Assembly: GCA_964426735.1 (NCBI GenBank)
Contig: CAYRRP010000003.1
Location: 77,378-141,377, forward strand
DNA length: 64,000 nt
Reading direction: 5' to 3'
Origin: an uncultured Candidatus Saccharibacteria bacterium
GTDB lineage: Bacteria; Patescibacteriota; Minisyncoccia; Phycocordibacterales; DATDWN01
The stretch's first letter is position 1, and the number at the start of each line of letters is the position of its first letter. Below are positions 3,051 through 36,247 of the stretch, piece by piece. The translations under genes and the position numbers were made by a program. A model generated the notes under the pieces. It did not search any database and was not told the DNA's origin. It saw only the letters and a list, made by a program, of their open reading frames with translations.

Positions 3051-3671
3051 CTACATCCCTACTCCAGTAATCATCTTAAAAAAGAAACTTACCACCGGGG
3101 AAAGGAACTGAGACAAGAAAAACACAAAGAAAATGAGGATTGTGATACTGTAAGCTTCCATAGTAGTTCTGATATGTGCCATGTTGTAAGGCAAAAAGGC
3201 AAAAAGTATCTTTGATCCATCAAGTGGTGGGATAGGTACCAGGTTAAAACACGCAAGAACAAGGTTAATTATCGTGATAGTAGCTGATATATGAATAAAA
3301 TCACTCGATAGCGTCAAAATGCCAGTAGATGCAAGTCGGATAATAAGCCCGAAAAACACTGCAATACATATATTAATGAATGGCCCCGCAAAAGCGACAA
3401 TAGCTTCGCCCCATTTTTGATTCCTCAAGTTATAGGGATTAAACGGCACAGGCTTTGCCCAGCCGATGATGAATCCCCCAAGCTGATATGACAAGAATGG
3501 GAGAATCACAGACCCAAACCACTCTAAATGCTTAAGTGGATTGAGAGTGAGGCGTCCCTGGAAGCGAGCTGTATTGTCCCCTTGCAGATACGCTGCATAC
3601 CCATGAGCTACTTCATGGGCAACCACTGAAAACATTAGTATAAGTAATGAAAAGATAAAATCGATTTGCAT
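3051..3671 (-). CDS. site-2 protease family (peptidase M50) zinc metalloprotease, membrane
   Basis: HEVAHG (HExxH) sits in the first TM helix, the protein is polytopic and hydrophobic, and there is an LDG motif. Confidence 0.8.
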   Translation of the reverse strand: MQIDFIFSLLILMFSVVAHEVAHGYAAYLQGDNTARFQGRLTLNPLKHLEWFGSVILPFLSYQLGGFIIGWAKPVPFNPYNLRNQKWGEAIVAFAGPFINICIAVFFGLIIRLASTGILTLSSDFIHISATITIINLVLACFNLVPIPPLDGSKILFAFLPYNMAHIRTTMEAYSITILIFFVFFLSQFLSPVVSFFFKMITGVGM

Positions 3672-3711
3672 ATTGGTAAAATTATGCTACCATATTCCCA
3701 CATACAAATAT

Positions 3712-3954
3712 ATGGCTAAAGCATGTCCAATAACTAAAAAGAGTTCTCAGCTCCAGGGCGGATACTCAAACCGAACTCGTGCAACCAAGTTCAACCCAAC
3801 TGGTATCGTACGAAAATACGCAAATCTTCAGAAAAAGAAGATCTATATTCCTGAACTCAAAAAGAGTATCACTATGGAGCTCTCTACTCGAGCGATCAAG
3901 ACTATGCAGAAGAATGGCGTGTATGCGACCCTCAAAAAAGCTAACTTGGTGTAG
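3712..3954 (+). CDS. rpmB: 50S ribosomal protein L28
   Basis: MAKACPITKKSSQLQGGYSNRTRATKFNPTGIVRKYANLQKKKIYIPEL… matches the L28 family pattern (C..TGK…N.SH…KR.F.PNLQ). The start is taken at the internal Met, not the ORF-track 3673. Confidence 0.8.
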   Translation: MAKACPITKKSSQLQGGYSNRTRATKFNPTGIVRKYANLQKKKIYIPELKKSITMELSTRAIKTMQKNGVYATLKKANLV

Positions 3955-4112
3955 CAAATAACGGCTCTGGTCTTTTTCTCGCATCTCATCTTCTAAAATT
4001 GTAAAAATAATTCTCACCTGCGCACTCAGGCAGGTTCAAATTATTTTTAAATTTTATAAGCGACCTGCGCGAAAAATCCTCAAAGATTCTTTATATGATA
4101 TAATATGCGCAT

Positions 4113-4349
4113 ATGAAGGAAAATAAGGCAAAAGAACAAATATTTTCTGTAATCTACGAACCTGCACCAGAAGGTGGTTTTGTTGTGTCTGTACCGAGTC
4201 TACCTGGTTGTTACTCTGAAGGAGAGACTTTAGAAGAAGCTCAGAAAAATATCCAAGAAGCTATTGAACTCTATATTGAAAATTCAAAAGAAATCACCAA
4301 CTCCCATCATATAAATCCTATTATTGGCACTGTTTCGGTATATGCCTAA
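4113..4349 (+). CDS. hicB: HicB-family antitoxin
   Basis: …YEPAPEGGFVVSVPSLPGCYSEGETLEEAQKNIQEAIELY… is the HicB/UPF0150 signature. Confidence 0.8.
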   Translation: MKENKAKEQIFSVIYEPAPEGGFVVSVPSLPGCYSEGETLEEAQKNIQEAIELYIENSKEITNSHHINPIIGTVSVYA

Positions 4350-4548
4350 AATACCTCTTCTCACAGATAAAGAGATTATTAGTTTGATTGAAAAGCAAGG
4401 TTTCGTATTCCTCCGACAAAAAGGTAGTCATAAAATCTTTCGGAAAGAAGGAAAGAGTATTGTCGTACCTTGTCACAACAAACAGCTCAAACGAGGTCTT
4501 ACAGCAAAAATCTTAAAAGATGCAGGTATTGATCCGGAAAAACTCTGA
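4342..4548 (+). CDS. hicA: HicA-family mRNA interferase toxin
   Basis: …LIEKQGFVFLRQKGSHKIF…VVPCHNKQLKRGLTAKILKDAGI… is the HicA/YcfA signature. It overlaps the hicB stop by 8 nt. Confidence 0.8.
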   Translation: MPKIPLLTDKEIISLIEKQGFVFLRQKGSHKIFRKEGKSIVVPCHNKQLKRGLTAKILKDAGIDPEKL

Positions 4549-4555
4549 AAGCACG

Positions 4556-5431
4556 CTACTTTCTTATAAATCTTTTTCCATCTGACTCAAACACAATCGT
4601 CCCCTCATCCATCGTCACTAAAATCTCCACGTTGTTACTTTTTAAGGTCTCAAGTGTGGCTTGTTTTGGATGTCCGTATGAATTATCTTTTCCAGCAGAA
4701 ATAATCGCAACCTCCGGACTGACTGCTTTTACAAACTCATCTCCTGTTGATGTGTCTGAACCATGATGCGCCACCTTGAGTATATCGGCATCTACATACT
4801 CTTTATATTGGCTTACAATATACTGCTCTATATTTTTTGTCGTATCACCTGTCAACATAATAGACGTATCTTTATACACAAGTCGTGCAACAAGAGAACC
4901 TTCGTTATGTGACACATCTTCGACATCTCTATCAGGGAAGATAATATCAATATATGCACCTCCTCCAAGCAAAATCTTTTGCCCTGTTCGCCCAATCAAC
5001 ACAGGAATCTCTTGTTCTACAAGAATACGCTTAAATTCTTGATATATTGGATTATTGTCAGCTTTCACACCAGGCTCAAGGACTGCTTCAACATCGTACC
5101 GCGACAGAAGCGGTATAAAACCTTCAAAATGATCCCTATCAGGATTAGTTACGATAATCATGTCTATACTTCTATCAATCAGTGGCATTTGTGTAGCAAC
5201 TTCAGAGACAAGCGCACTGCCTGGTCCACCATCAATCACAACCTGATTGCCTGTCGGTGACTCAATAAAAATAGCATCACCTTGTCCTACATCAAGAAAT
5301 GCAACTCGAAGTGGACGTTCTCGTGTTTGAAATACAAAAAATAATACTGCAATTACACACACAAAAAGTGTAAAGAGTGTATATATTTTCCAATAGGTAT
5401 GGATATTTTCTTTAATCCAGTTTTTATTCAT
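4556..5431 (-). CDS. ComEC/Rec2-type metallo-beta-lactamase domain protein (stand-alone, N-terminal TM anchor)
   Basis: DVGQGDA and HHGSDTST(G) motifs typical of the ComEC C-terminal MBL domain. An N-terminal hydrophobic helix is present. Confidence 0.75.
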   Translation of the reverse strand: MNKNWIKENIHTYWKIYTLFTLFVCVIAVLFFVFQTRERPLRVAFLDVGQGDAIFIESPTGNQVVIDGGPGSALVSEVATQMPLIDRSIDMIIVTNPDRDHFEGFIPLLSRYDVEAVLEPGVKADNNPIYQEFKRILVEQEIPVLIGRTGQKILLGGGAYIDIIFPDRDVEDVSHNEGSLVARLVYKDTSIMLTGDTTKNIEQYIVSQYKEYVDADILKVAHHGSDTSTGDEFVKAVSPEVAIISAGKDNSYGHPKQATLETLKSNNVEILVTMDEGTIVFESDGKRFIRK

Positions 5432-5577
5432 AGCTATGATATAGTATAACAGTTCAATTAAATTACGGAATGAATCCTGTTAGAAATCACGGAAATCAAT
5501 ATAACGGGAAATAATATATTATTAGTTTAACTTTATAGGAAACATAAACCACTTTATGATTTCCTATTTCTAATGAG

Positions 5578-6171
5578 ATGAAAACATTTGAAGAAATGAA
5601 ATTTAATATCGGCGAGCTTATCGGTATTTCTACCGACTCAGTTACCGAACACCTCAAGCTCTACGCTGGATATGTAAAACATGCCAACCTTATCATTTCT
5701 AAAATCGAAGAAATGAGTAAAGATTCAGAAACAAATGCATATGCACTTGGCGAGCTTCAACGACGTTTTGGTTTTGAATTTGATGGTATGAGAAATCACG
5801 AATATTATTTCAAATCACTCGTTGGTGGTGCAACAGCAATCACCGAAGGTGGCGCGCTTCATACTGCAATCGTTGAAGAATTCGGTTCGTTTGATGCATG
5901 GTTTGCACGTTTTAAAGCAGTAGCACTCACTCGTGGTATTGGCTGGGCAATGCTCTACTACGATAAAACAACTGGACGACTTTTAAATGCATGGGTAGAC
6001 GAACAACACCTCGGACATCTCACCGGACTCTCACCTATTCTTGCGCTTGATGTATGGGAACATGCATTTGTACCTGACTACAAAGCATCTGGGAAAAAAG
6101 CATACGTTGAAGATTTTTTCAAAAATCTCAATTGGTCTGTGATTGAAGAAAATTTCAAAAACGCACAATAG
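5578..6171 (+). CDS. sod: Fe/Mn-family superoxide dismutase (divergent)
   Basis: C-terminal motif ALDVWEHAF (the DVWEHAYY signature carrying the Asp/His ligands), NHxxYF, and an N-terminal His in EHLKLY. Confidence 0.7.
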   Translation: MKTFEEMKFNIGELIGISTDSVTEHLKLYAGYVKHANLIISKIEEMSKDSETNAYALGELQRRFGFEFDGMRNHEYYFKSLVGGATAITEGGALHTAIVEEFGSFDAWFARFKAVALTRGIGWAMLYYDKTTGRLLNAWVDEQHLGHLTGLSPILALDVWEHAFVPDYKASGKKAYVEDFFKNLNWSVIEENFKNAQ

Positions 6172-6193
6172 TTGACTTGTGGCGTGTTTATAT

Positions 6194-6214
6194 ATAGTCT
6201 CTACTATAGACTAT
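6194..6214 (+). terminator. hairpin ATAGTCT-ctactat-AGACTAT followed by a T-rich tract, probable sod terminator
   Basis: A 7-bp stem lies 23 nt after the sod stop and is followed by ttttcattttt. Confidence 0.35.
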
Positions 6215-6520
6215 GCAGGATTTTCATTTTTACAACATCTTGCTCGAGTTTATGTTGAGAGGACCGGTAAATGTCGCAGCACCTTGTACACCTGTGGTCG
6301 ACCCTTTCTCGACTATCCTCGAGGATGCAGTCTCCGCAGTAAATACGTGCATCCAAAAAACCCCTCTTAACAAACAAGAAAAACAACATAACACATCCCG
6401 TCGACGAGCATTACGCGAAAGTCGAGGGAGGGTTTACAGAAAACTCTGACACATGATGTGTTGGAGTTTTTTCTTGCATATAGAAAATATTTTGATAGTG
6501 TGTAACAAGGAGTCACTACG

Positions 6521-6754
6521 ATGAAAGATAACGGTACTGAAGACTTAGAGATGTTCCCTGAAGATCTCGAGTCAGATATTTTCTCAATTATGGGCTACTT
6601 AGCTCAGGAGCTATCGCCACACACCACGCCTGAAGGATTGGTTGAGAATTGTGCACGCGCAACAGGTGTCAGCCCACACTTTGTTCGCGAACTTCTTGTG
6701 GATTGCAGACGTGAATTTTTTAGCAAACTGGTTGTAAAAACACAAGCACCTTAA
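6521..6754 (+). CDS. small acidic hypothetical protein (77 aa)
   Basis: A good RBS AAGGAG lies 7 nt upstream of the ATG. No recognised domain. Confidence 0.5.
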   Translation: MKDNGTEDLEMFPEDLESDIFSIMGYLAQELSPHTTPEGLVENCARATGVSPHFVRELLVDCRREFFSKLVVKTQAP

Positions 6755-8307
6755 TATCCCACAACCGAATCATCCCCTGAGCGTGGCTCCGCCACACTCA
6801 GGTTTTGTTTTTTATGAAAACGATAGAGAATGAAACCAAAAACTACATAACATACAACTAACCAAAACACAGGAATGTATGGTACATGAATATTTGCAAA
6901 CGGAAGTTTTGAAACACTTTCCGCAATAAATATATCCCACGAGAGAAGAAGATATGTTGGTATTCCTGGAATCAATCCCAAAAAACGTGAGACGAAGCCA
7001 GCTATCGCCGTACAGAAACCGAGAAGCATGGTCAGTGGTACAAATGGAAGTACGACAAAGTTTGCAGGAAATGCAAACACTCCAAAATTTCCAGACATGT
7101 ACACAATATATGGAAGCACAGAAAACTGAGCTCCCAGTGTGGTTGCAGACAATTCCCTTAGTCCATATTTTTCAGTAATAAAAGAAATATGTTTTAAAAC
7201 AATCGGTGCAACATACATCACACCAATAGTTGCTAACACAGATAGATGGAATGATGGATCATATAACAATATAAATGGATTCCACATAACCATCCCCCAT
7301 ACCGCAAGCAGTAGTGCACGTGACACATTGTACGTCTTATGGAATTGCTTCCCTAAAAGCGCAATACTCGCCATAATACCTGCGCGCACTGCTGAAGCTC
7401 CACTCCCTGCCATCAATACAAAAAATATAACACCAAAAAGTGATGCTCCAAATGCAAAACGTACTGACACATATTTCATTACCACCAAAATACTTTCAGC
7501 AACAACTGTAATGTTATACCCTGACAATACGATAATATGCGAAAGTCCTGCCGTCCTAAACTGATCTGTAATAGTTTTTGGTAATGCATCAGTCCCCAAC
7601 AAAATTCCCGCCAAAAGCCCTGCTTCCGGCTCAGGAACCACATTTCTGATTGACTCTACAAATCGACGCTTTAAACCAAAAAGTATCGTAAGGATACTCT
7701 TGCCCTCTTCTCCTATTTTCTTAATTGATGCAAAAGAGAGTGTGTGCGTAATAGAGTCTTTAAATAGATACATTTGATAATCAAACATTCTTCCATCATC
7801 CGCCTCGATGCGCCCAGGCACACGAAGTGTCCCCGTAGCCACGACATAATCACCGTACGAAAATTCTGGAAATGCATGTGTACTTAAAAGAACACGAGTA
7901 TCGACTTGTTTAGTGGTGCTCCCAAAAGAAACTTTATCTACACGAAGCATGACTTTCTGCTTTTCTCCATCGGAGACCGGCTCACGCACCACCACTCCAT
8001 GAAGGGCTATATTTTTTGATTCTTGTGTAGGTAGATTTTTTATATCAGGATAGGAAATCATAAACACACGCAGCTGACCGACACACAACCCAATAAAAAA
8101 TATAATCAAAAGATGGGAAACTTTTCGGACATCTTCTGTCTTGGAAAATTTTGCATACACACCAAGTACACCCGCACACAAGAAACACGCTACACACAAA
8201 GCAACAGAGAGATGTATGAATGAAACAGCAACCCCTACCAAACTGGAAATAAAAAACAGTAACATACTGTTACCGTTTCTTAAACTCACTGATAATATTC
8301 TGCTCAT
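6751..8307 (-). CDS. comEC: ComEC/Rec2 competence channel-domain protein (DUF4131 plus Competence domain, no MBL domain)
   Basis: Polytopic membrane protein with the GLSHIIVLSGYNITVV motif (cf. GLSHLLAISGLHV) and many TM helices. The MBL domain is encoded separately at 4556..5431. Confidence 0.8.
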   Translation of the reverse strand: MSRILSVSLRNGNSMLLFFISSLVGVAVSFIHLSVALCVACFLCAGVLGVYAKFSKTEDVRKVSHLLIIFFIGLCVGQLRVFMISYPDIKNLPTQESKNIALHGVVVREPVSDGEKQKVMLRVDKVSFGSTTKQVDTRVLLSTHAFPEFSYGDYVVATGTLRVPGRIEADDGRMFDYQMYLFKDSITHTLSFASIKKIGEEGKSILTILFGLKRRFVESIRNVVPEPEAGLLAGILLGTDALPKTITDQFRTAGLSHIIVLSGYNITVVAESILVVMKYVSVRFAFGASLFGVIFFVLMAGSGASAVRAGIMASIALLGKQFHKTYNVSRALLLAVWGMVMWNPFILLYDPSFHLSVLATIGVMYVAPIVLKHISFITEKYGLRELSATTLGAQFSVLPYIVYMSGNFGVFAFPANFVVLPFVPLTMLLGFCTAIAGFVSRFLGLIPGIPTYLLLSWDIFIAESVSKLPFANIHVPYIPVFWLVVCYVVFGFILYRFHKKQNLSVAEPRSGDDSVVGY

Positions 8308-8962
8308 CCTCTGTGCTCACTGATTTTTTGAATAACGCACCTGACACACCGTTTACACGCGCTTTACACTCGTCCCAAGTTCTGTGTACCTCAACTACTC
8401 CTTTGACACAACTGACATATGAATATGCGGGGTGTGATTTTTTTGACGCACTCTTTTTTTCTTTAGACTCGATTGAACTTTCAACCTGCTCCACATCGAC
8501 ATCATACTGGTCGAGACTTCCTTCATATAGTTCCACAGGATTGTTATCTGCATATGAGGTAGCGATCACATCACATCGTTCATTTGCAGGCACACCAGCA
8601 TGCCCAGAAACTTTTCGAAACAACACTTCACGAGACGTGATTACCTGATCAAGTGCTTCCCACAAATCTCTGTTTAATACATCATCTTTAGTTTTTGTTT
8701 TCCAATTATTTTTTTTCCATCCTTCAATCCAAGAAGTGATACCTGAAATAAGGTAACTTGAATCGGTGTGCACAATCACCTCATCTGCTTTTGTGTATGT
8801 GAGTGCTTCGAGTACCGCAGTGAGTTCCATTCTGTTGTTGGTCGTATTTCCTTCACGACCACCGAGTTCGGTTACACGCTCACCTTCTACAATAACCGCA
8901 CCCCATCCCCCAAGTCCCGGATTTCCTCGTGACGAACCGTCTGTAAAAATAATTGCTTTCAT
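8270..8962 (-). CDS. rnhA: ribonuclease HI with a C-terminal hybrid-binding-domain-like extension
   Basis: MKAIIFTDGSSRGNPGLGGWGAVI…NRMELTAVLEAL…HTDSSYL…GHAGVPANERCD is the RNase H fold. The C-terminal ~70 aa (…VEVHRTWDECKARVNGVSGALFKKSVSTEDEQ…) resembles the Cauli_VI/RNase H1 HBD. The start is taken at the internal Met. It overlaps the comEC start by 38 nt. Confidence 0.8.
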   Translation of the reverse strand: MKAIIFTDGSSRGNPGLGGWGAVIVEGERVTELGGREGNTTNNRMELTAVLEALTYTKADEVIVHTDSSYLISGITSWIEGWKKNNWKTKTKDDVLNRDLWEALDQVITSREVLFRKVSGHAGVPANERCDVIATSYADNNPVELYEGSLDQYDVDVEQVESSIESKEKKSASKKSHPAYSYVSCVKGVVEVHRTWDECKARVNGVSGALFKKSVSTEDEQNIISEFKKR

Positions 8963-9001
8963 AAAGTGTATTATAGCAGAGTTTAGATATGAAACAGCAT
9001 T

Positions 9002-9118
9002 CAGAAGTTGGTGAATATTATATTTAAGCCGTGTCTCGCAGGCTGACGAGCCGAGAGTCAGCGCTGGGCGAGCACGCACAGACAGCGACGGCGAAAAGAT
9101 AATATTCACCAACTTCTG
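9002..9118. repeat. 117-nt hairpin element: a 20-bp perfect AT-rich inverted repeat enclosing a 77-nt GC-rich core
   Basis: CAGAAGTTGGTGAATATTAT (9002-9021) is the exact reverse complement of 9099-9118. The core contains an internal hairpin GCTGAC-gagccgaga-GTCAGC. It lies between the recJ stop and the rnhA start. Confidence 0.7.
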
Positions 9119-9128
9119 TTTATATGCC

Positions 9129-10874
9129 CTACTCAATCACATCCACTATTCTCAACCGCAATTCAGGGAAGTTGCGAAACATCGACTTTTCTATGTGCGC
9201 AACCAGATTGATTTTCTGTCCCGCTTCCAGTGCAACACTGTATTTACTTGGGTCAGAAAAGAATCCAATTGCTTGGATAGTTTTACCATTCTTCTTGTGA
9301 AACGTAAGTTCAAGATGATTTTTTTCTTTTCCAAATTGTTTCAAACTGCTGATTACCACATCAGAAATCAGAAAAAGAGGCTTTGGATTGTCGATACCAT
9401 ATGGTGCAAGCTTCTCGACATGAGAATAGACATTCCAATCCACATCATCGATTGATATTTCTTTATCCACCACAACAGGTACTGGTTCACTTAGTTCATT
9501 ACGAAGCGCTTTAAATGAATCATTCAATTTTTTCTCAAGCTCATGAACTGTAGCAAGTGATACCGAAAATCCACCCGCACCCGCGTGTCCACCAAAATCA
9601 AGAAATGCATCTTTTGCATGTCCCATCAACTTCATAATATTTGTATCTCCACCTGCTCGACATGAACCTTTCAAAATCACATGTCCGTCTTCATCTTTCA
9701 TTTCTTCACCTGATCGTCCCCAGAGAAATACCGGGCGATTATGTTCATCACCAAATGAATTTGCAACCAGTCCAAGAAGTGATGGTTTCCATTTTGGATT
9801 ACCGAGCACTATCACATCACCGAGCACATCTTCTCGTTCAGAAATTATTTTTTTAATTTCTTTTACCATACTTGCCACCACTCCTTTGCGTTCATTATTG
9901 ATTGTATCTAAATGTTCTGCCATGATTCCTGCTTGTACCGGATCAGTTTCTCCAAGCATCAAAAATGCATCACGAGGGACACCCATGCGAGATGCGGCAT
10001 TGATACGCGGAGTGATCATAAAACCAATATCTTCTTCAGTGAGATGTGCTTGATTCATTTTTAAAATCTGACAGAGTTTTTGAAGACCTGGTCGTGGAGA
10101 CTTTCGCATCACATACAAACCATATGATGCGAGCACGCGGTTTTCTCCACGAAGTGGCACCATGTCAGATAATGTCGCGAGACCAACCATATCAAGAAGC
10201 CACTTCTCCCACCCTTCCACCACAGAATATCTTTTTTTAAATTCTTCATGTTGCAACAGTGCACACACAACTTTCCAAATCACTCCAGACCCACATAACA
10301 TTTTTTCTGGATACTGACATCCTGGTTGTTTTGGATTTATAATTGCATATGCACTTGGAAGTACTTCGTGTGGCAAGTGGTGGTCAGTAACAATCACATT
10401 CAGACCCTCTGAGTTTGCATACTCCACTTCACTTACATCTGCAATCCCACAATCAATAGTGATCACAAGCGTCACTCCATTTTTCTTAAAGAGATCAGTT
10501 GCATCATGACTCATACCGTACCCTTCATCATTTCGATGTGGAATATAAACCTCAAAATTTTCATAACCAATTTTTTTAAAAAAATCATTCATCACCACTG
10601 CACCAGGGATACCGTCTGCATCATAATCAGAAAAGATTCCAATCCGCTCCCCTGCTTCTAGCGCCCGAAGAATTCTCTCCACCGCTTTTCCCATATCTTT
10701 CAGCAGGTAGGGATCGTGAATGTCCCGATTGAAATCAGGAGCGATAAAAAGCTCTGCATCAGCATGTTCGGTAATTCCGCGAGCATGAAGAAGTTCTTGT
10801 AATATCGGATGATACGCTTTGAGATTTTCTCTGACTGCATCCACCAGCTTCTCCCGGACAACATAGTTTTTCAT
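9129..10874 (-). CDS. recJ: single-stranded-DNA-specific exonuclease RecJ
   Basis: DHH/DHHA1 family motifs (…SDYDADG…, …DHH…), 581 aa. Confidence 0.9.
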   Translation of the reverse strand: MKNYVVREKLVDAVRENLKAYHPILQELLHARGITEHADAELFIAPDFNRDIHDPYLLKDMGKAVERILRALEAGERIGIFSDYDADGIPGAVVMNDFFKKIGYENFEVYIPHRNDEGYGMSHDATDLFKKNGVTLVITIDCGIADVSEVEYANSEGLNVIVTDHHLPHEVLPSAYAIINPKQPGCQYPEKMLCGSGVIWKVVCALLQHEEFKKRYSVVEGWEKWLLDMVGLATLSDMVPLRGENRVLASYGLYVMRKSPRPGLQKLCQILKMNQAHLTEEDIGFMITPRINAASRMGVPRDAFLMLGETDPVQAGIMAEHLDTINNERKGVVASMVKEIKKIISEREDVLGDVIVLGNPKWKPSLLGLVANSFGDEHNRPVFLWGRSGEEMKDEDGHVILKGSCRAGGDTNIMKLMGHAKDAFLDFGGHAGAGGFSVSLATVHELEKKLNDSFKALRNELSEPVPVVVDKEISIDDVDWNVYSHVEKLAPYGIDNPKPLFLISDVVISSLKQFGKEKNHLELTFHKKNGKTIQAIGFFSDPSKYSVALEAGQKINLVAHIEKSMFRNFPELRLRIVDVIE

Positions 10875-10993
10875 TGGTTAATTTTAACACAGCAATACAA
10901 ACAACCTCATTGACACACCTCTTTTAAAAGTAGTATGCATACTTTGACATATAAATATAAATATGGTTAAATTAATTTCGGAGGATCTTTTAC

Positions 10994-11731
10994 ATGCCCA
11001 ACGAACTGGTGGTACGCGAGCAACTTGCACTTACGATTACCAACCCGAGAGTGGTCCATATAGCACACCACCTCAGATGGAAACCTGTCACCACTATTGC
11101 TCGCATCGAACGAGCACTGCCATCAATCCTGGAGCAACAGATTTATCTTGCTATTGCACCAATGGTTGGTGAATCCGGACTCCTTCCGGAATCCCTCGCC
11201 AAACTCCTCAGAATATTTCTAGGGTCAAAGGAGCTTCGACTTGAAGATTTGACACCTGGATACCCAACCCAAAAAAACTTCGATGAATTTATTGAGTTTC
11301 TCGGTGAGTGCATCACCATTCTCAAAGTGATCAAGCACGAATATATAACGCTTGGTTTAAGTATAAATGATGCGGCACTGATTGTGCTTCGTTATGGAAC
11401 AAATGACCCTGAACGTCTTATTGAGATGGTAGACAACAACCTCGAGCAACTATGCGAAGTTCTTGATATCAGCAACAACATTCCGTACGGAACTCGTATG
11501 CGAGTCTGTCTGAATGTTGTCATCACAAAAGTGATACCAGGAAATCAAAAGAGCGGTGCTCCCGATCTACTCGATTTTACTGATTTCATTGAAATGGATT
11601 CCGTCAGGCGTCACCATATTCGCAAATGTGTACACCAAGAAATTGATGACCATCTTGCTTGTGATTTCCAAACTCTGAGAGGATATGATTCTCTCAAAAT
11701 ACTAAAAGAAGAAGGGATTGGTATTCTATGA
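10994..11731 (+). CDS. hypothetical protein (245 aa) in a GC-elevated cassette
   Basis: A strong RBS GGAGGA lies 8 nt upstream. The coding GC is about 50% against roughly 38% in neighbouring genes. No recognisable domain. The stop overlaps the next start (ATGA). Confidence 0.6.
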   Translation: MPNELVVREQLALTITNPRVVHIAHHLRWKPVTTIARIERALPSILEQQIYLAIAPMVGESGLLPESLAKLLRIFLGSKELRLEDLTPGYPTQKNFDEFIEFLGECITILKVIKHEYITLGLSINDAALIVLRYGTNDPERLIEMVDNNLEQLCEVLDISNNIPYGTRMRVCLNVVITKVIPGNQKSGAPDLLDFTDFIEMDSVRRHHIRKCVHQEIDDHLACDFQTLRGYDSLKILKEEGIGIL

Positions 11732-12876
11732 GTGGTTTTCTCTCTGATTTAAAGATGTCTATTGCTAAGTCGCGAGAAGGTCCAAAACCATGGGGGGATG
11801 TTAATCCCCTCCTGCTTATAGGACTTTCCGACACCATTCTTAACCTTGGCCTTGATGAACAACAGCTACACGCCGTTGTGAAAAGCTATGGTAGGCAACT
11901 AACTGCTCAGGTACACCCTGATCGTCAGACGGTCAATATCTCTGACGAAATTCGAAAGCGAATCTTTGAAGGGTTTAATGCTATTGATGACTTTGGTCAC
12001 TTTCAGCTTGCCTTGAAAGAATTCCGATCCCTTCGTGCAGAAGATCGGCGGGAAAACAGAATACTTCACGAGGCGATATCTGCATTACAGCATCGTATTT
12101 CTTCCATAGAAGGCGATGCTTCAAAAATCAAGGAGGCAGCTCTCAAGCTCGAATCTGAAAAACAAGAGTTCTTACGCCTTAAGCGAGAGGAAAGCTTGAA
12201 ATTACCTGACCTTCAGAGATACTGCGAAGTTGCTAACAAAAGAATCGACGAACTAATCAAGCAAACCGAATCAACCCGAAAAACAGGTAATGCATGGAAG
12301 AGTCGTTTTTCAACAGCAATGAAATATATGCTGAATTTAGGCAACTTAAATCAACCTCATAAACTCTTTTTTGATGCACAATGGGTTGCAGTAGTCTCTT
12401 TGTGGCACCACGAAGGAAAACCTCTTACACCAGACGACATGATGTGGCGTCTCTTACTTGCACAAGACAAGGAGGTCTGTTCATTAGGTATCCCTTTAGA
12501 GACAATCATTGATCAGTGGCGGATAGCCAAAAGTCATTTTGGCAAACCAGAATTAACAGAATCAAAAAAGCTTCCGCTTTCACTGAGTATACTTAAACTA
12601 GACAAAGGGGTTCCGAGTCTGATATCTGGCGACAGCTTGACGGTGCATGGCGGTAAAGTTATAGGTTCGATTGATGGAAACAGCCACAAAATCACACGAG
12701 AGAACCTGTTTCAAAAGATGGATATTCTAGATATTCCTCGTCTGCTTACACCAACTATCGTACCGAACGGATTACTGGTATCTGTATCGGAACTTAAGGG
12801 AGTTAAAGCTTCTTGGAGTACCACTTGCCCTGGCTACAGGTTCCATACAAAGCGAATCATTGTGGCGGCGGGATAA
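11728..12876 (+). CDS. J-domain (DnaJ-like HPD motif) protein with a coiled-coil region and an uncharacterised C-terminal domain
   Basis: The N-terminal ~70 aa …LNLGLDEQQLHAVVKSYGRQLTAQVHPDRQ…ISDEIRKRIFEGFNAIDD fit the J-domain helix II/HPD/helix III pattern. It is translationally coupled to the upstream ORF and has elevated GC. Confidence 0.6.
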   Translation: MSGFLSDLKMSIAKSREGPKPWGDVNPLLLIGLSDTILNLGLDEQQLHAVVKSYGRQLTAQVHPDRQTVNISDEIRKRIFEGFNAIDDFGHFQLALKEFRSLRAEDRRENRILHEAISALQHRISSIEGDASKIKEAALKLESEKQEFLRLKREESLKLPDLQRYCEVANKRIDELIKQTESTRKTGNAWKSRFSTAMKYMLNLGNLNQPHKLFFDAQWVAVVSLWHHEGKPLTPDDMMWRLLLAQDKEVCSLGIPLETIIDQWRIAKSHFGKPELTESKKLPLSLSILKLDKGVPSLISGDSLTVHGGKVIGSIDGNSHKITRENLFQKMDILDIPRLLTPTIVPNGLLVSVSELKGVKASWSTTCPGYRFHTKRIIVAAG

Positions 12877-12881
12877 AATTC

Positions 12882-12926
12882 ACACACGTGAAGGATGTAA
12901 ATCCTCCACGTGTGTTTTGTTTTTTA
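12882..12926 (+). terminator. intrinsic terminator (9-bp stem ACACACGTG/CACGTGTGT with a structured loop, then a T-rich tail)
   Basis: A long hairpin is followed immediately by TTTTGTTTTTT. Confidence 0.7.
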
Positions 12927-12948
12927 CAAGTGATATACTTTTACTATT

Positions 12949-13314: not shown

Positions 13315-13339
13315 AATGCTACCCTTTTGGGGTAGCATT
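13315..13339. terminator. hairpin AATGCTACCC-ttttg-GGGTAGCATT
   Basis: A 10-bp stem immediately after the HIT stop. The A-rich tract upstream gives a U-tail on the minus strand. Confidence 0.45.
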
Positions 13340-13489
13340 GCTGGTGGAATGGTGGAGAAAGTTGAGAAGTAACAAAAGAAGAAAGAAAAGGTACACACCC
13401 CAAACTATCCTTTTAGTGCTCTTGAAAGACCTTTCCTCTTGAGGAGTCATCTTATAGACTCTTTTTTGCCACTGTAAATCGTACATATT

Positions 13490-13807
13490 CTAGTCCTTAA
13501 TACCTTTTTCCATCTTCCAGATGGCACAGTTTTCTGGGGATCGTTCAAACTCAACCACCATCTCGACAACAGGTTGAGTCCCATCAGATGCCGGTGACTT
13601 AATACCTGTAATCCGCCAGAGTCGCTTTCCATCATCGAAAAAAAGAAAAACTAGGTTACGACCGACATTATGTTTCGTGGTGAGATTGGTATTTCCACAT
13701 GGTGACCAATCCATTTTTTCTCGTTTTTTTAGCTGGGCCGAATACCATACAGATTGAGCCAAAAATAATACAGCAGCAATAACAGCGAGCGGGCCAAAAG
13801 TTTTCAC
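13490..13807 (-). CDS. small membrane-anchored/secreted hypothetical protein
   Basis: N-terminal hydrophobic helix, 105 aa, no recognised domain. Confidence 0.4.
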   Translation of the reverse strand: MKTFGPLAVIAAVLFLAQSVWYSAQLKKREKMDWSPCGNTNLTTKHNVGRNLVFLFFDDGKRLWRITGIKSPASDGTQPVVEMVVEFERSPENCAIWKMEKGIKD

Positions 13808-13842
13808 AAGGTGCCTCCACAGCTAATATAATCACCCAGGAC

Positions 13843-15897: not shown

Positions 15898-17379
15898 TTA
15901 TCTTGTCTCTTCCCAAGAAATGATTTGGTATTGATCTGATGTCAATGGAAAACTCGGAGGCGGCCCGTACAATAAGTTGGCATCATAAATAATATCTCGA
16001 CTGTCGTATCCTGTACCGTCTGTGTATGCAAAACCGTATCGTAAACTACTTGCAATCATTCCGTACAGTGTCAATGAAGCTTTACTGTCATCCGAACATG
16101 ATGTTTCGTAATAATACCTTCCTGCACGTCCATTTTGTGCAACAAGTGCCGCATCTATACGAAGATTATTTGCTGAATACTGACCAACGTTTACGTTACC
16201 TTGCGATATAAGAGAGATTACATCTCGTCCATCATAATTTGTATATAATAAATTTGCATTGATTGTAATACTTGGTCGTGTTGCAGGGTTATCTGGGAAA
16301 CGTCCTACTGCAAGCGTCACACGAGCAGTATCAATCTGTCCATCTACCCACACATTATCTTCAAGGAAAATCAATCCATTCGAAGGAATCGCATAATTAC
16401 CGAGCAGTGTCTGCCCTCCTCCACCAGATGTTCGTATACTCCATGAACCCCACCCTGTTTGATTTTGCACATTAGAACAATTATTACCCACAGACTGAAG
16501 TGCAGTAACTCGATACAAATCAAACGTATCATTTGTTTTAAATACTACACGATACCCTTGATACCCTGATGCAGCAAAATATCTTCCTCCTGTTTGTGCA
16601 CCTGATTTAATTGACGCGAGATCAGTCGTCAATCCAACAAAATCAACCGCCGGAAGCGGAAATTGTCTACCTGATTCAAATACATCAGGTCGAGCAGGTA
16701 CACTATTTGGTGGTGCTTCGGCAGAACGAAACGTATCATTCACAGTACCACCTGGCAATGTTACGTGAGTATGCACTCCAAACTCATTGTTTCCTGAATG
16801 ATCAGGGTCATCATATACATCTCGCGAAGACGAAATAACGTTGTGAGCAAGTCCGTCAAAACGAATTCCACCGTTTGAGTGAATAGGGCCATAGACTTCA
16901 GTACCCTCTCCAAATCGAAGACTGTCATTGCTTACCACTGCATATTTTGCGAGAGATGGAATTGCAAAACGAGCAGTAATTGACCGCGCAACAGAAGGAT
17001 CATCGGTGATACGTCCAGTTGATTTTACAGTCACAATAGTAAACCCTGGTTGTGGTGGAGTAATCTCAAGAGTAAAGGAGCCAATCTGATTTCCATCTTT
17101 ATCATAAAATGGACGCACAGAAGGTGTGCTTGTACCAGTACCATCCTGATAGTCAGTCGGTGCATGTGCAAGATGCCATCGATAATAATCGACTCCAGAT
17201 TCTGCAATTTGAAGGGCTTGCTCTCTATACAATGCAAGACGTGACGCTTTAATATTTAATCCTGCCCAAGAAACCAGTCCTCCAATAATCACAACTGCAA
17301 TACTTCCAAACACAAGTGCTTGAACAAGAAGAGAACCTTTTTGTAGTTGGTATCCAGTAGTGGTGTGTATCTTTTTCAT
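15898..17379 (-). CDS. type IV pilus assembly protein, PilX-like (N-terminal PilX_N-type hydrophobic segment)
   Basis: N-terminus QKGSLLVQALVFGSIAVVIIGGLV. It is a large Gly/Thr/Asn-rich extracellular protein in a cluster with prepilins, pilC and pilB. Confidence 0.6.
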   Translation of the reverse strand: MKKIHTTTGYQLQKGSLLVQALVFGSIAVVIIGGLVSWAGLNIKASRLALYREQALQIAESGVDYYRWHLAHAPTDYQDGTGTSTPSVRPFYDKDGNQIGSFTLEITPPQPGFTIVTVKSTGRITDDPSVARSITARFAIPSLAKYAVVSNDSLRFGEGTEVYGPIHSNGGIRFDGLAHNVISSSRDVYDDPDHSGNNEFGVHTHVTLPGGTVNDTFRSAEAPPNSVPARPDVFESGRQFPLPAVDFVGLTTDLASIKSGAQTGGRYFAASGYQGYRVVFKTNDTFDLYRVTALQSVGNNCSNVQNQTGWGSWSIRTSGGGGQTLLGNYAIPSNGLIFLEDNVWVDGQIDTARVTLAVGRFPDNPATRPSITINANLLYTNYDGRDVISLISQGNVNVGQYSANNLRIDAALVAQNGRAGRYYYETSCSDDSKASLTLYGMIASSLRYGFAYTDGTGYDSRDIIYDANLLYGPPPSFPLTSDQYQIISWEETR

Positions 17380-17990
17380 AAATTATCTTTAAGATTACGC
17401 AGTGTTGCTGTGGTAGTCACTATAAGTGGTATTGGTGTTTTATTTGGATCTTTCTCAATAACCAACGTGATCTTTACCATGCGAATATTTGAAATCACTA
17501 CAGGTTGAGTAAGTGGTGATGTAGTTCCAGCAAATGTACTTGGATAATACGTAAACAAAGTTGTTGTTGCACTATTTGCAATATGCGAAACAACTGAAGA
17601 AACTTTTTCATTTGCCTCTACATATGCAAGTGGACTACCAGTTGGAGATAACTCTCCACGGCGAAGGGTTGTGCCGGACATAAAATACCGTATTCTTTCT
17701 TTATTCCCATCATTATTAATATCGCTATAAAAAGTTAACGCGGACGAACTTGCAACAGTTATAGGATATCCTCCAAGAGAAGATGGTGATGCTTCTCGCA
17801 ATTCAGCAACCATCTTTTTAATCACATGACGTGCATCAAGTTGTGCAGACAAACTATTTTGAGCAGAGAAATTTAAGGTAAAAATGTCACGCTGAAATGT
17901 TCCGACCGCAAGTGCAAGTAGGCCAATAATCGCAGAACTCACAACTATTTCAACAAGAGTGACACCTTGTGTATATTTCATATTATTCAC
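17376..17990 (-). CDS. prepilin-type N-terminal cleavage/methylation domain minor pilin
   Basis: N-terminus …TQGVTLVEIVVSSAIIGLLA. Confidence 0.75.
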   Translation of the reverse strand: MNNMKYTQGVTLVEIVVSSAIIGLLALAVGTFQRDIFTLNFSAQNSLSAQLDARHVIKKMVAELREASPSSLGGYPITVASSSALTFYSDINNDGNKERIRYFMSGTTLRRGELSPTGSPLAYVEANEKVSSVVSHIANSATTTLFTYYPSTFAGTTSPLTQPVVISNIRMVKITLVIEKDPNKTPIPLIVTTTATLRNLKDNL

Positions 17991-19782
17991 TTACCAGTAT
18001 AACATCTTGTAACTTCCAACTACTGTTAACAATGAGTGGAATCGTCTGAGTTTCATAACCTGTTTTAGTCACCCGAAGACTATATGTACCATCTGAAAGA
18101 CCTGTAAACACCACTTGACCTGGTGGAGTACATGAAGCGGTAAATGTAAATGCAATATCAGAAATATTCGGTGAACGACTCGTATCATCTGTATGGAGGT
18201 AGAGTTTGTATCTTAAATAACGTTTACCACTCGCCGATGAATGTATCGTACGGTTTGCAGTTGTGAAGTAGGTTGCATTTGTACCATCTGGCCCTACATA
18301 ATCCCATGTACCACCATCATCGTTTGTTGCAATCTGAAAACGTACAGCATTTGCACCCGTACTTGTCGCCTGATCCATCGGAGACCATACGATTTCTTGA
18401 AAATTTGAAACTCCGCCAGTATCAAAAGAAGATGATGTCAATGTTCCATCTGTTTGATACTGTCCGAGAATATATTTTAATGTTAAATCACCTGCTGGAT
18501 TATTGATTTCTATATTTCCATCACTACTTAAATACTGTGACATATTTGTTGATGTTGCTTGTCCTCCACCTGATGACCAGTTTGTTTGTACTAAAGAACC
18601 TTTACCGGTCACACGTGTTGCCAACACAGCACCACCAGAAGAAAGGAGTTCAACTGTAGCATCAGCAAGTGGTAGTGATGAAGCACTATCACGTACAGCC
18701 ACCAGTACTGTCTCTGGATCTTTTGGTGCAACAACAAGATCTACTTGTTGTGATGCGTCAGGGGAAAGCAAAAAAGAAATGAGAGGGTTTGCTCCAATCA
18801 AATCATACGTTCCTGATGTCATGGCGAGTGCGTAAGTATCCCACTCCATATTCGACAAAGAGACAGAACCTGAACCACCTGTTGAGTGACTCTGATCATA
18901 TTTAAGAATCACAGGGTTTGTTCCAATTGTTTTTGTGCCTGTTAAGGTGATTGGTATATTGGTTACTGTTGTACAGTTTGATGCGAAACTATTTACAGAT
19001 AATGTACTCAACTCATCAATAATAAAACTCTGCGCTGTTACTTGTTGCAACACCACGGTTGCATGAGGTTTGGTTGGGTTTGGGTTTGCAACCGTAATCG
19101 GATAGGTGCGTTCAGTAGAATACCCTGATTTAGTAACGGTAATTTCATATGCATTAATACCTGGAGGAGCGTCCACGATAGCGAGCAATCCATCATTATT
19201 GGTCACGTCATCAATCGAGATCGTACTTGTGGCACTATTGTTCTCTATATGCACACTTGCTTGTGGTACAGGATTGCCGTTTGCATCAAACACACGAATA
19301 AACAATGCTCCATTTGTTGATGCAGTTTCAAGACTTTTAGGAGCAACTCGTGATGTTACACTCACGGGTTTAAAATTACGACACAATACACATCCGATTT
19401 CTATTTCAACAACCTTAGAATCTGCGGGCGAAAGGTCATTTGGACTACCGCCAAGCGTTCCATCAAATGGATCATCAAAATTTCGTACTGTAGTCGTGGC
19501 GATAAATGTCGTCCCGTCTCGAACCAACGTCTGCACATGAGTCAACAAACCATCCGGAATACCTCCATCAATACCCACACTTGCATACGGAAGATTTTTT
19601 ACAATTTCCAACTGTTCGTTTGCCAAGTCGATAGCAGCAATCTTTTGTCGTGACACAGATACTGCTTGGTAAATAGAAGTATATGCATTGTATACACCAA
19701 CAATAATAATGGTAAACACAGAAACCCCCACCAGAAGCTCTATAAGCGTAAAACCTTTTTTATTTTTGATGTAATTTTGCAT
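17983..19782 (-). CDS. large type IV (pseudo)pilin with a prepilin N-terminus and a ~560-aa beta-rich C-terminal domain
   Basis: N-terminus KKGFTLIELLVGVSVFTIII is the classic class-III signal. The C-terminal domain is Thr/Ser/Gly-rich. Confidence 0.8.
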   Translation of the reverse strand: MQNYIKNKKGFTLIELLVGVSVFTIIIVGVYNAYTSIYQAVSVSRQKIAAIDLANEQLEIVKNLPYASVGIDGGIPDGLLTHVQTLVRDGTTFIATTTVRNFDDPFDGTLGGSPNDLSPADSKVVEIEIGCVLCRNFKPVSVTSRVAPKSLETASTNGALFIRVFDANGNPVPQASVHIENNSATSTISIDDVTNNDGLLAIVDAPPGINAYEITVTKSGYSTERTYPITVANPNPTKPHATVVLQQVTAQSFIIDELSTLSVNSFASNCTTVTNIPITLTGTKTIGTNPVILKYDQSHSTGGSGSVSLSNMEWDTYALAMTSGTYDLIGANPLISFLLSPDASQQVDLVVAPKDPETVLVAVRDSASSLPLADATVELLSSGGAVLATRVTGKGSLVQTNWSSGGGQATSTNMSQYLSSDGNIEINNPAGDLTLKYILGQYQTDGTLTSSSFDTGGVSNFQEIVWSPMDQATSTGANAVRFQIATNDDGGTWDYVGPDGTNATYFTTANRTIHSSASGKRYLRYKLYLHTDDTSRSPNISDIAFTFTASCTPPGQVVFTGLSDGTYSLRVTKTGYETQTIPLIVNSSWKLQDVILVSE

Positions 19783-19808
19783 TTTTATCTTCTCGAATAA
19801 TTACGAAC

Positions 19809-19921
19809 CAATAAAATTGCTTTAGGTGCGCGGCGCAAGAAGGTTTTGGAGCGAGCCTTACTTGTCGTAAGGCAAGTGGCAAAACTTGAATTGCAACAAA
19901 GCAGATGAAGTGATTTTATTG
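19809..19921. repeat. copy A of the conserved ~110-nt intergenic structured-element family
   Basis: Outer stem CAATAAAAT / ATTTTATTG. Inner stem GGTTTTG / CAAAACT. Central hairpin CCTTAC-ttgtc-GTAAGG. 3' consensus …GCAACAAAGCAGATGAAGTGATTTTA. Confidence 0.7.
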
Positions 19922-19930
19922 TGTTCGCGG

Positions 19931-21145
19931 TTAGATTGCATCAGCAAGACTATACGTAGGAGCAAGCATTGAAATAGCAAATATTCCCACCGCTGCACCG
20001 ATCACAATCATAAGCACAGGTTCAATCACAGAAGACATGTCTTTTGTCTTCTGATCTACTTCATCCTCATAAAACTGAGCTACTCCAACCAACATATCCC
20101 CTATTTTTCCTGTTTCCTCACCTACCGAAACCATTTCTCCTACGAAAATAGGGTAAAGATCTTCATGTTTTAAAAAGATTGCAGACATTAATTCTCCTTT
20201 CTGAATCACCTGCTCAATATTATCAAGCACAGCTTTATAATAGGTATTTTGAATAACCTCTTTTGTGACAGAAATAGCGACCACAATATCCACACCTGAG
20301 CTAATAAGTGACGAGAGTGTACGTGCGGTACGTGCCGAATTAACTTGTTTTACAATATCTCCAATCACGGGAGTATGTAATGCAACATAATCAGATAATC
20401 GTTTTCCTTTTGTTGTTCTTAATCCATAATATACACCTGCACACAAAGCAATTACTCCACCAATCATCACGAGAAAATAGTCTTTCATGATATCACTGAT
20501 ACCAATAATGATTCGTGTAGACAACGGGAGCTTAATACCGAGACCTTTAAACGTTTCTGTGAGTGTTGGAACCATGTATACCATCATCAATACACCGATC
20601 ACCGCCATCAGAGAAAAAATAACTGCAGGATACATCATTGCTCCTTTGATTTTCTTATTCAACTGATATGTCTTTTCCATCTGGTTTGAAATATTCTTGA
20701 GTGCAAGAATAAGGTTTCCAGATTCTTCACCTGCACGCACCATTGAAATAAACAAGGTTGAAAATACCTCTGGATAGGCCTTCATTGCTTCAGAGAGAGT
20801 AACACCTTTACTGATTTCTTCTTCAAGAGAGGTGAGGATTTTTTTAAACTGACCTTTTGACTGCCTGCCCATAATAGATATTGCTCGAGTAATCGGAAGT
20901 CCTGCCTCAATCATAGAAGAAAGATTTCGTGCAAACACGATCTTGTCATGAGTTTTTACTTTTCCTGAAAATGGCATCGAAAAAGATCCTGAGAAAAACT
21001 TTTGAGTATGTACTTCGGATGACGAAAGCACCTGTCCCCCTTCTTTTTTTATATCTCTATATAAAGAAAATTTATCGGGAGCTTCTTTTACTCCTTCATA
21101 TTCTTTACCTTCTGCATCAATTGCTTTGTATTTATATTGTGACAT
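19931..21145 (-). CDS. pilC: type IV pilus assembly inner-membrane platform protein PilC (GspF family)
   Basis: 404 aa with duplicated T2SSF domains and three TM regions. Confidence 0.9.
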   Translation of the reverse strand: MSQYKYKAIDAEGKEYEGVKEAPDKFSLYRDIKKEGGQVLSSSEVHTQKFFSGSFSMPFSGKVKTHDKIVFARNLSSMIEAGLPITRAISIMGRQSKGQFKKILTSLEEEISKGVTLSEAMKAYPEVFSTLFISMVRAGEESGNLILALKNISNQMEKTYQLNKKIKGAMMYPAVIFSLMAVIGVLMMVYMVPTLTETFKGLGIKLPLSTRIIIGISDIMKDYFLVMIGGVIALCAGVYYGLRTTKGKRLSDYVALHTPVIGDIVKQVNSARTARTLSSLISSGVDIVVAISVTKEVIQNTYYKAVLDNIEQVIQKGELMSAIFLKHEDLYPIFVGEMVSVGEETGKIGDMLVGVAQFYEDEVDQKTKDMSSVIEPVLMIVIGAAVGIFAISMLAPTYSLADAI

Positions 21146-21188
21146 ATATATTAAAACTGATGATTTACAAATTTGTAAATCATATTAT

Positions 21189-32158: not shown

Positions 32159-32512
32159 TTATACATTGTAATGTGCCCTGATGTCTGCGACTACTGTGTC
32201 TATGTACGACACTGGGTAATCCTGTCTGGTATTAACACAATAGACATACTCGACCACCAAAAACCACTGCCCTAGTTTTTTCTCAAGCGTGACCATGCAC
32301 AAACAGGTTGTTTTCCCATAGAGATACAGGGGAAATTTTTCACCTCTGTAAATACTCACGCCTCGCATGCCGCGCTGCGTCCAAAAATCATTCTCAAGAT
32401 CAAAAATGCAAAGCTCTTCATGGAGTTCGGATAGAGTATCATGGACAAAATTATTTTCTTCATGATTCTCTTTCCACCACGCCTCAATCCATTGCAATAT
32501 TCTGGACATCAA
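32159..32512 (-). CDS. hypothetical protein (117 aa), probably co-transcribed with the upstream amidotransferase
   Basis: Same orientation as the GATase gene, with a terminator just downstream. Preferred over the overlapping + strand ORF 31955..32275. Confidence 0.4.
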   Translation of the reverse strand: MMSRILQWIEAWWKENHEENNFVHDTLSELHEELCIFDLENDFWTQRGMRGVSIYRGEKFPLYLYGKTTCLCMVTLEKKLGQWFLVVEYVYCVNTRQDYPVSYIDTVVADIRAHYNV

Positions 32513-33301: not shown

Positions 33302-33347
33302 ACACATATCAAAAAACCGGCATAAAACCGGTTTTTTGATATGTGTG
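33301..33347. repeat. perfect 20-bp palindrome CACACATATCAAAAAACCGG-cataaaa-CCGGTTTTTTGATATGTGTG (bidirectional terminator-like)
   Basis: Exact inverted repeat between tRNA-Gly(TCC) and the tRNA-like element. Confidence 0.85.
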
Positions 33348-33416
33348 CGGGTGGGGAGAATCGAACTCCCGTATACTGCTTGGAAGGCAGTCATTCTACC
33401 ACTAAATTACACCCGC
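33346..33416 (-). tRNA. tRNA-Gly (anticodon TCC)
   Basis: GCGGGTG acceptor, anticodon arm ACTGC-CTTCCAA-GCAGT, T-arm GGGAG-TTCGATT-CTCCC, 71 nt. Confidence 0.9.
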
Positions 33417-35202: not shown

Positions 35203-35499
35203 TTAGCCGGCTTTTTCAGCAGCAATTTGTAACACCATATCAAAATTATCTTCTTTTTGTGCTTTATTCGCTCGTGTAAAACCACACTTTTCACATACTT
35301 GAATAATATTGTATTCACTCCCCTTCTTTTGTATTTCCGTTGGACGCATCAGTCCTCCACATGTTTCCGCTCGATCACCTGGGTCAATATCAACATGTTT
35401 AGACCACAAACACTGTGGGCAATGATTCGTAAAACCATTCCCTACCACAGTTTCTCCGCAGTGTTCACAGACAAAATCTTCAATAGTTCGTTTGAACAT
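35203..35499 (-). CDS. RNHCP-domain zinc-ribbon protein
   Basis: TNHCPQCLWSKHVD is the RNHCP signature, and CEHCGE/CEKCG are additional Cys pairs. Confidence 0.7.
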   Translation of the reverse strand: MFKRTIEDFVCEHCGETVVGNGFTNHCPQCLWSKHVDIDPGDRAETCGGLMRPTEIQKKGSEYNIIQVCEKCGFTRANKAQKEDNFDMVLQIAAEKAG

Positions 35500-35539
35500 A
35501 CACCATGTATAGTAACACAATCAATCCAAAAAAAGCCCC

Positions 35540-36153: not shown

Positions 36154-36226
36154 CGGGGTGTGGTGTAACGGCTAACATGCTTGATTTGGGATCAAGTGAC
36201 TCCGGGTTCGAATCCCGGCACCCCGA
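36154..36226 (+). tRNA. tRNA-Pro (anticodon TGG)
   Basis: CGGGGTG/CACCCCG acceptor, anticodon loop TTTGGGA, T-arm CCGGG-TTCGAAT-CCCGG. Confidence 0.9.
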
Positions 36227-36247
36227 CAATAGATTTTCTAAATACAC

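Follow-up and report, generated by a model that had tools for sequence, protein, structure and literature searches.

J domains require a histidine-proline-aspartate (HPD) motif to stimulate the ATPase of Hsp70 chaperones. Among the J-domain systems described so far, the following are the closest to the gene pair that is the subject of this work: (i) the class C (type III) J-proteins (PF00226), which lack the glycine/phenylalanine (G/F) region, the zinc finger and the C-terminal domains of DnaJ, and whose specialised non-J region is presumed to give client or location specificity; (ii) E. coli cbpA-cbpM, a co-transcribed pair that codes for a J-protein and its modulator; (iii) the HscB (Jac1)/IscU/HscA system, in which the non-J helical part of a short, specialised J-protein hands one dedicated client to Hsp70; and (iv) Pam18/Pam16 (Tim14/Tim16) of eukaryotic mitochondria, both of which are J folds, a group in which J folds without HPD act as binding or regulatory modules. 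The pair studied here, genes A and B, lies in a stretch of 64,000 nucleotides from an uncultured Candidatus Saccharibacteria bacterium (assembly GCA_964426735.1, contig CAYRRP010000003.1, positions 77,378 to 141,377), hereafter called the window; L numbers designate related sequences. The Patescibacteria, or Candidate Phyla Radiation (CPR), have very small genomes and are almost entirely uncultured, and no paper on this pair or on J-domain proteins in CPR was found in the literature.

Compared with these systems, protein B resembles the class C J-proteins, and its sequence indicates that it is not an ortholog of DnaJ, CbpA or HscB. It shares with class C (i) helix II, the HPD loop and helix III, in the register of DnaJ; (ii) the absence of the other DnaJ domains; and (iii) a specialised non-J region. 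It differs from class C in that (i) its J domain scores below the Pfam gathering threshold; (ii) it has an invariant NPL motif and a conserved segment after the J domain ('EFR.L..EDR.E'); and (iii) it is obligately paired with the upstream gene A, the HPD motif being degenerate in some lineages. The class of J-proteins is thus a known one; what is new here is a lineage-specific J-protein with an obligate partner that lacks a known fold.

The J domain of B is divergent and, as far as sequence comparison can tell, bona fide. The Pfam DnaJ model (PF00226) does not match the window copy even at E<=1; it gives sub-threshold matches in 9 of 13 family members (best E 1.3e-4), and the members with HPD, one distant member among them, have scores of 17-25 bits, below the gathering threshold of 27.8 bits that no family member tested reaches. 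Likewise, a profile of the full-length B family retrieves from PDB weak J-domain matches (E 0.2-2) amid coiled-coil noise. The profile built from the N-terminal ~120 residues of 14 diverse B partners (profile A7), in contrast, matches more than 55 PDB chains which are exclusively J domains; E. coli DnaJ (1bqz) ranks first at E 9e-7, and its helix II, HPD and helix III line up with those of B, HPD falling on HPD. A comparison with residues 1-76 of E. coli DnaJ by hhalign gave 94.9% probability (E 4e-8); the PDB result does not depend on this comparison. In the alignment from the PDB search, DnaJ R22 is matched by residue 53 of B (K in the window copy) and DnaJ K26 by the invariant R56, so that helix II of B keeps some of its basic face. 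Database labels point the same way: the homolog P0048 (MBA3733266.1) is called 'J domain-containing protein' at NCBI, and P0061 is called 'CbpA' at JGI, a label that reflects the J domain alone. A first, sequence-only reading of the window had spoken of a clear J domain with an HPD motif; domain and motif are real, but 'clear' overstates a domain that is found by family-level profiles only.

Beyond the J domain, the AlphaFold2 (AF2) model of B (predicted local distance difference test score, pLDDT, 77.8) shows, from the N- to the C-terminus, a helical domain, a long helical hairpin and an alpha/beta domain (pLDDT ~88). The coiled-coil region yields just coiled-coil noise in Pfam and PDB, with SMC-, ZapB- and filament-like matches, and all the invariant columns of a 21-sequence B alignment fall within residues 4-109. 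No member of the B family has a DnaJ_C or zinc-finger match in Pfam, a search for the pattern CxxCxGxG was empty, and B has no Pfam match to the HscB C-terminal domain (HSCB_C). The lack of a G/F region, a zinc finger and the DnaJ or HscB C-terminal domains identifies B as a class-C-type J-protein. As regards HscB/Jac1, a further difference is that the neighbours of the pair are not isc genes. Neither A nor B has transmembrane-like segments. The C-terminal domain is absent in at least three genomes, where B has 266-298 residues (L009 1305-2201, L010 8723-9556, L012 8741-9541), and the partner in the distant L019 is likewise short (5722-6546, 274 residues), consisting of J domain plus coiled coil; elsewhere B is longer (427-461 residues). 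A frameshift artefact was ruled out for L009, L010 and L012, in which tblastn found no C-terminal remnants in any frame. Since naturally short variants exist, the C-terminal domain is dispensable for the core function of the pair.

The two genes are strictly paired. In all 21 distinct genomes examined, the next gene after A is of the B type and has the same orientation; these are 14 of the close family (the window, L001, L003, L005, L008-L015, L024 and L025) and 7 distant ones (L016, L017, L019, L021, L022, L023 and L026) which were reached through remote A relatives by direct contig look-up. Identity to the window copy amounts to 44-56% for A, 42-53% for the J domain of B and 24-37% for the rest of B: hence, A and the J domain are the constrained parts, conserved to the same degree, and the rest of B drifts. 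Besides, the two families carry opposite net charges (median isoelectric point, pI, 5.3 for A and 9.4 for B), which fits an A-B complex. At one distant locus, L026, the called A reading frame (3921-4889, 322 residues) is extended at its C-terminus and runs ~200 nt past the true start of B, and B (~4690-6390) has its NPL...HEQ region upstream of the called B start; this is either an unusually long overlap or a case of mis-called genes. RuvB is the next gene downstream of that pair.

Of 48 family members, 43 carry the HPD motif itself, which in the window copy is H63-P64-D65. In the window's own subfamily, HPD plus the following R is found in 43 of 44 members, despite an overall identity of 28-50%; that HPD is retained while overall B identity drops to 28% is a sign of purifying selection acting on the Hsp70-activating motif within this group. 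Among the distant partners, HPD is found in 2 of 7 (L021 and L022). The variants are HTD in L003, a closer genome, HED in L016 and L023, HSD in L017, HDD in L019 and HEQ in L026, so that they affect 6 of 21 genomes and 5 of the 7 distant lineages. An alignment of 14 partners, which excludes L026, has as invariant positions the NPL motif before helix I and the H and D of the motif; L026 lacks the motif D. The window B is therefore probably an active J-protein, as far as its motif allows one to judge, and some of its relatives appear to be J-like. These variant domains remain paired with an A homolog and are otherwise conserved, which suggests that the J-like domain has a second conserved role, most simply that of binding A.

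Protein A is an acidic, all-helical protein that represents a new family. It has 29 close homologs, and an exhaustive profile search yielded 116 clusters at 50% identity (92 of them at E<=1e-10), all of ~200-280 residues. Searches against Pfam, NCBIfam and PHROGs returned no family, those against PDB no relative by sequence, and A has no fold match. When 28 close and 85 diverse members were compared with Pfam, just scattered single-member noise was obtained (helix-turn-helix families, Fes1, Rep3_N), and PDB profile searches gave no matches but designed helical repeats and the PAK CRIB motif, all with E>0.01. Diverse A alignments have no conserved stretches of 7-10 residues. An assignment of A as a nucleotide exchange factor of the Fes1/HspBP1 type was rejected: the Fes1 match (E 0.31) occurs in the window copy only (1 of 28 members) and has no structural support. 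The tail of A (window 11644-11728, residues ~218-245) is predicted to be disordered (pLDDT below 50). Its sequence, which ends in 'R.YDSL..LKEEGI(I/L)', is nonetheless conserved in the close family, though not in the distant relatives; the tail may serve as a short linear motif that binds B or DnaK.

The pair is vertically inherited in Patescibacteria of the Minisyncoccota type. In the window, a metallo-beta-lactamase fold protein, SOD, ComEC, RNase H and RecJ lie on one side of A and B, and HIT, PGK, TPI, three pseudopilin-like genes and PilC on the other. This gene order is identical over more than 15 kb in L024, a Minisyncoccota metagenome-assembled genome (MAG; GCA_054605875.1), and the segment A-B-HIT-PGK-TPI is also found in L025. 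Between the window and L024, the flanking genes are 61-86% identical, A 75% and B 53%, the divergence of A lying between the extremes set by the core genes on either side. The housekeeping genes around the pair are different ones in more distant genomes, which fits genome rearrangement over a long divergence; nothing points to mobility. The patterns of the close family were matched in 9 of 185,579 species-representative genomes, all of them Patescibacteria-type MAGs, so that the close family is rare and clade-restricted.

Genes for replication, recombination and segregation recur near or next to the pair: RecJ, RmuC, DnaB, RecR, ParB, the DNA polymerase III delta subunit (HolA) and RuvB. RmuC immediately precedes the pair, in the same orientation, in three genomes, and DnaB and RecR occur in two genomes each. 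Roughly counted, ~6 of the 26 identifiable genes that directly adjoin the pair belong to this DNA-transaction class, against 5-7% expected on a general background estimate rather than a calculated one; the comparison was made after the fact, and its data points are in part not independent. The link of the pair to DNA transactions is a weak lead.

Taken together, these data are best explained, with somewhat better than even confidence, by a vertically inherited Patescibacteria operon that codes for a dedicated class-C co-chaperone and its partner and serves a housekeeping process. A and B would form a complex; the J domain of B, with its intact HPD, would dock on ATP-bound DnaK and trigger ATP hydrolysis; and Hsp70 would thereby be directed onto A or onto a ligand of A. 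The process served might be DNA replication or recombination, a suggestion which is made because of the recurrent neighbour genes. No DnaK, DnaJ or GrpE genes are located within the sequences examined, and the Hsp70 partner of B is assumed. A more specific version, namely that A and B constitute a CPR-specific, obligate two-component Hsp70 co-chaperone in which A directs DnaK to a DNA replication, recombination or segregation assembly, the J domain of some lineages being now a non-activating regulator, is at present rather improbable.

The alternative that survives best, unlikely as it is, assigns A the role of CbpM: an operon-encoded modulator that binds the J domain and blocks or gates the access of DnaK, B being possibly nucleic-acid-associated. 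As a unit, the pair has its closest bacterial analogy in cbpA-cbpM, likewise a two-gene operon for a basic J-protein and a small, acidic, dedicated partner, and the complex 3ucs is among the J-domain matches in PDB. It is also in keeping with this alternative that A and the J domain are conserved together, that the partners have opposite charges, and that the NPL motif, the H and the post-J segment are kept where HPD is lost, suggesting a second binding partner. Nevertheless, the analogy is a functional one only: A has no similarity to CbpM or to any MerR-like, or other Pfam or NCBIfam, family, B lacks the C-terminal domains of CbpA and DnaJ, and the partner gene comes first here, the reverse of the order in cbpA-cbpM.

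It is more doubtful still that B is an Hsp70-independent, J-like scaffold of the Pam16/Tim16 type and the pair DnaK-free, for instance as a coiled-coil structural or segregation factor. The H-x-D variants recall the J folds without HPD of Pam18/Pam16, a system that differs in that both its partners are J folds, which A is not. This alternative would account for the HED, HSD, HDD, HTD and HEQ variants, for the fact that every member scores below the Pfam DnaJ threshold, for the long coiled coil with its SMC-, ZapB- and filament-like noise matches, and for FtsW and ParB being neighbours in two genomes. However, the near-invariance of HPD plus R across the divergent subfamily of the window, with HPD again in L021 and L022, would be difficult to account for if Hsp70 activation were not selected for; the basic residues of helix II are kept as well.

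Base composition and databases bear on a last alternative, put forward by the sequence-only reading, according to which the pair is a horizontally acquired, defence-type module. That reading had given the genes a GC content of 46-52% against ~38% in their flanks; the measured values are 43.4% for gene A, 43.2% for gene B and 43.3% for the pair, against 39.3% for the window, and within gene A only the first ~200 nt reach 51.7%. Relative to the 58 non-overlapping open reading frames (ORFs) of the window, with a mean GC of 39.7 +/- 2.7%, the pair has a z of about +1.4. GC at third codon positions (GC3) is 0.39 in A and 0.38 in B, against a mean of 0.31 +/- 0.06 (z +1.3 to +1.4; ranks 6 and 7 of 58), and codon-usage distance from the pooled genes is ordinary (ranks 17th and 28th of 58). 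A large GC shift was therefore rejected, and with it horizontal transfer on that ground. The syntenic block of L024 is ~5 GC points lower, and the pair there is again 3-4 points above its neighbours; across genomes its GC ranges from 38% to 60%, tracking the host genome. Since the same +3-4 point offset recurs in a second genome, the slight GC offset belongs to the genes themselves and does not mark a recent import or un-ameliorated foreign DNA.

Furthermore, the hallmarks of a genomic island are lacking: composition and codon usage are as just described, there is no tRNA within 20 kb of the pair and no integrase, flanking repeats are at chance level only, and the pair is present at the same site in its syntenic relatives L024 and L025. 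PHROGs gave no match and IMG/VR, BFVD and the phage and plasmid collections no homologs of the pair, and the sole PADLOC match (MkoC, E 0.019, over the coiled coil) is noise. An accessory or defence module gained by horizontal transfer (a chaperone-targeting effector, or an abortive-infection or toxin-antitoxin-like system) is hence very improbable and already largely refuted: its mild GC elevation (+4 points), its autonomous two-gene operon with promoter and terminator of its own, the uncharacterised state of both A and B and a PemK toxin gene near one distant locus are outweighed by core-gene synteny kept at 53-75% protein identity, by a GC offset shared with a second genome, by ordinary codon usage, by the empty mobile-element and defence searches and by housekeeping neighbours in every sampled genome. 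In essence, these data amount to what the sequence-only reading had itself named as refuting it, homologs that are widespread, single-copy core genes of the lineage with ordinary GC. In practical terms the outcome is negative, as the locus is neither a mobile nor a defence cassette.

A and B are a co-transcribed, translationally coupled operon, whose parts are listed in Table 1. The promoter is supported by its conservation in relatives and not by its match to the consensus: a consensus scan found promoter-like sites in the region no more often than by chance (4 observed, 5.2 expected), whereas the promoter element and GGAGGATCTTTTACATG, the sequence at the Shine-Dalgarno site, are nearly base-for-base identical in L024 and L025, whose proteins have drifted to 53-82% identity; no base of GGAGGATCTTTTACATG differs between the window and the two relatives. 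Another TTGACA (10910) lies inside a 26-nt insertion unique to the window. The upstream intergenic region, 119 bp long, is common to A and the divergent recJ. The terminator hairpin has a folding free energy (dG) of -22.3 kcal/mol (z = -5.6), and 0 of 200 shuffled sequences folded equally well. In related genomes, the A/B junction is a 1- or 4-nt overlap in nearly all cases. Heat-shock control through CIRCE was dropped as a candidate, since the window has no CIRCE operator. Regarding the anatomy of the locus, the sequence-only reading was accurate: it had described two ORFs overlapping by ATGA, tightly coupled, with their own promoter and ribosome-binding site and a strong terminator, a first protein with no recognisable domain, and a second one with a coiled coil followed by an uncharacterised C-terminal domain, and it had asked whether the two genes always co-occur, which they do in the 21 genomes.

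Table 1. Features of the A-B operon and of protein B, in window coordinates.
Feature	Position	Strand	Description
Promoter	10944..10972	+	-35 TTGACA 10944-10949, 17-nt spacer, extended -10 TG-G-TTAAAT 10964-10972
Shine-Dalgarno GGAGGA	10980..10985	+	8 nt 5' of the gene A ATG
Gene A	10994..11731	+	245-residue acidic (pI 5.5), soluble, all-alpha protein of an uncharacterised family
ATGA start/stop overlap	11728..11731	+	4 nt, seen in the sequence; translational coupling
Gene B	11728..12876	+	382-residue basic class-C-type J-domain protein; family median pI 9.4
Divergent J domain and family-specific extension	11803..12054	+	Residues 26-109; invariant NPL motif, helices I-IV, then conserved 'F..AL.EFR.L..EDR.E'
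HPD codons CAC CCT GAT	11914..11922	+	Residues 63-65
Long helical hairpin/coiled coil	11992..12342	+	Residues 89-205; AF2 helices 89-154 and 162-205
C-terminal alpha/beta domain	12343..12873	+	Residues 206-382, ~175 residues; unmatched fold, variable, dispensable in some genomes
Intrinsic terminator	12882..12926	+	15-bp stem 12882-12915, then T-run TTTTGTTTTTT

To return to the dedicated co-chaperone and its partner, the pair has been kept in very small genomes even as A diverged to ~20-30% identity, and it is therefore probably needed by these organisms. A specialised J-protein in a CPR genome is in itself unsurprising; it is the strict pairing with a fold-orphan such as A, together with the degeneration of HPD, that deserves attention. 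If A is a client or a specificity subunit, the pair offers an experimental route to a lineage-specific, chaperone-dependent process, and the natural series from HPD to HED, HSD, HDD and HEQ provides a ready comparison of functional J domains with J-like ones.

Several minor observations were made around the locus. In L022, the PemK-family toxin gene lies with a small upstream ORF just downstream of the A/B pair (3469-4145); the two are likely a toxin-antitoxin pair and, having been seen in one distant genome only, probably coincidental. L005 (3627-4837) and L006 (3678-5078) code for an identical B protein (P0009) and have different DNA directly upstream of the pair, with DnaB (466 residues, minus strand) on one contig and two small unannotated ORFs (109 and 186 residues) on the other, which could reflect rearrangement between strains, a disrupted dnaB or a difference in assembly. 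The ~530 bp between HIT and PGK in the window (13315-13842), with a doubtful 105-residue ORF on the minus strand (13490-13807; hydrophobic N-terminus, no Pfam match), are a window-specific insertion, given that HIT and PGK are 30-35 bp apart in L024 and L025.

On the minus strand, the window also has a type IV pilus-like cluster (15898-22940), with counterparts in L024 (10534-15152) and L017 (201-4020). It comprises a 493-residue protein, a 204-residue N_methyl pseudopilin, a 599-residue pilin with N_methyl and CarboxypepD_reg domains, PilC (T2SSF) and a 583-residue ORF that may be the assembly ATPase; in L017, the distant A/B pair is immediately preceded by the same set of three pseudopilin genes. 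Together with ComEC (6751-8307), the cluster gives the region a DNA-uptake flavour. The RNase H gene (8270-9136, minus strand) has a hybrid-binding domain (Cauli_VI, or RNase H1 N-terminal) at its C-terminus; its listed ORF of 288 residues, with a TTG start, overlaps ComEC, the L024 ortholog has 229 residues, and the true start is probably an internal ATG ('MKAIIFTDGSS'). Finally, the strongest GC3 and codon-usage outliers of the window are short ORFs (32159-32512, 35257-35601 and 36959-37339) around a tRNA cluster (tRNA-Gly 33345-33416, Pro 36154-36227, Arg 37028-37102 and Gly 37297-37368); the last of them directly overlaps tRNA genes, and these ORFs are probably not real genes.

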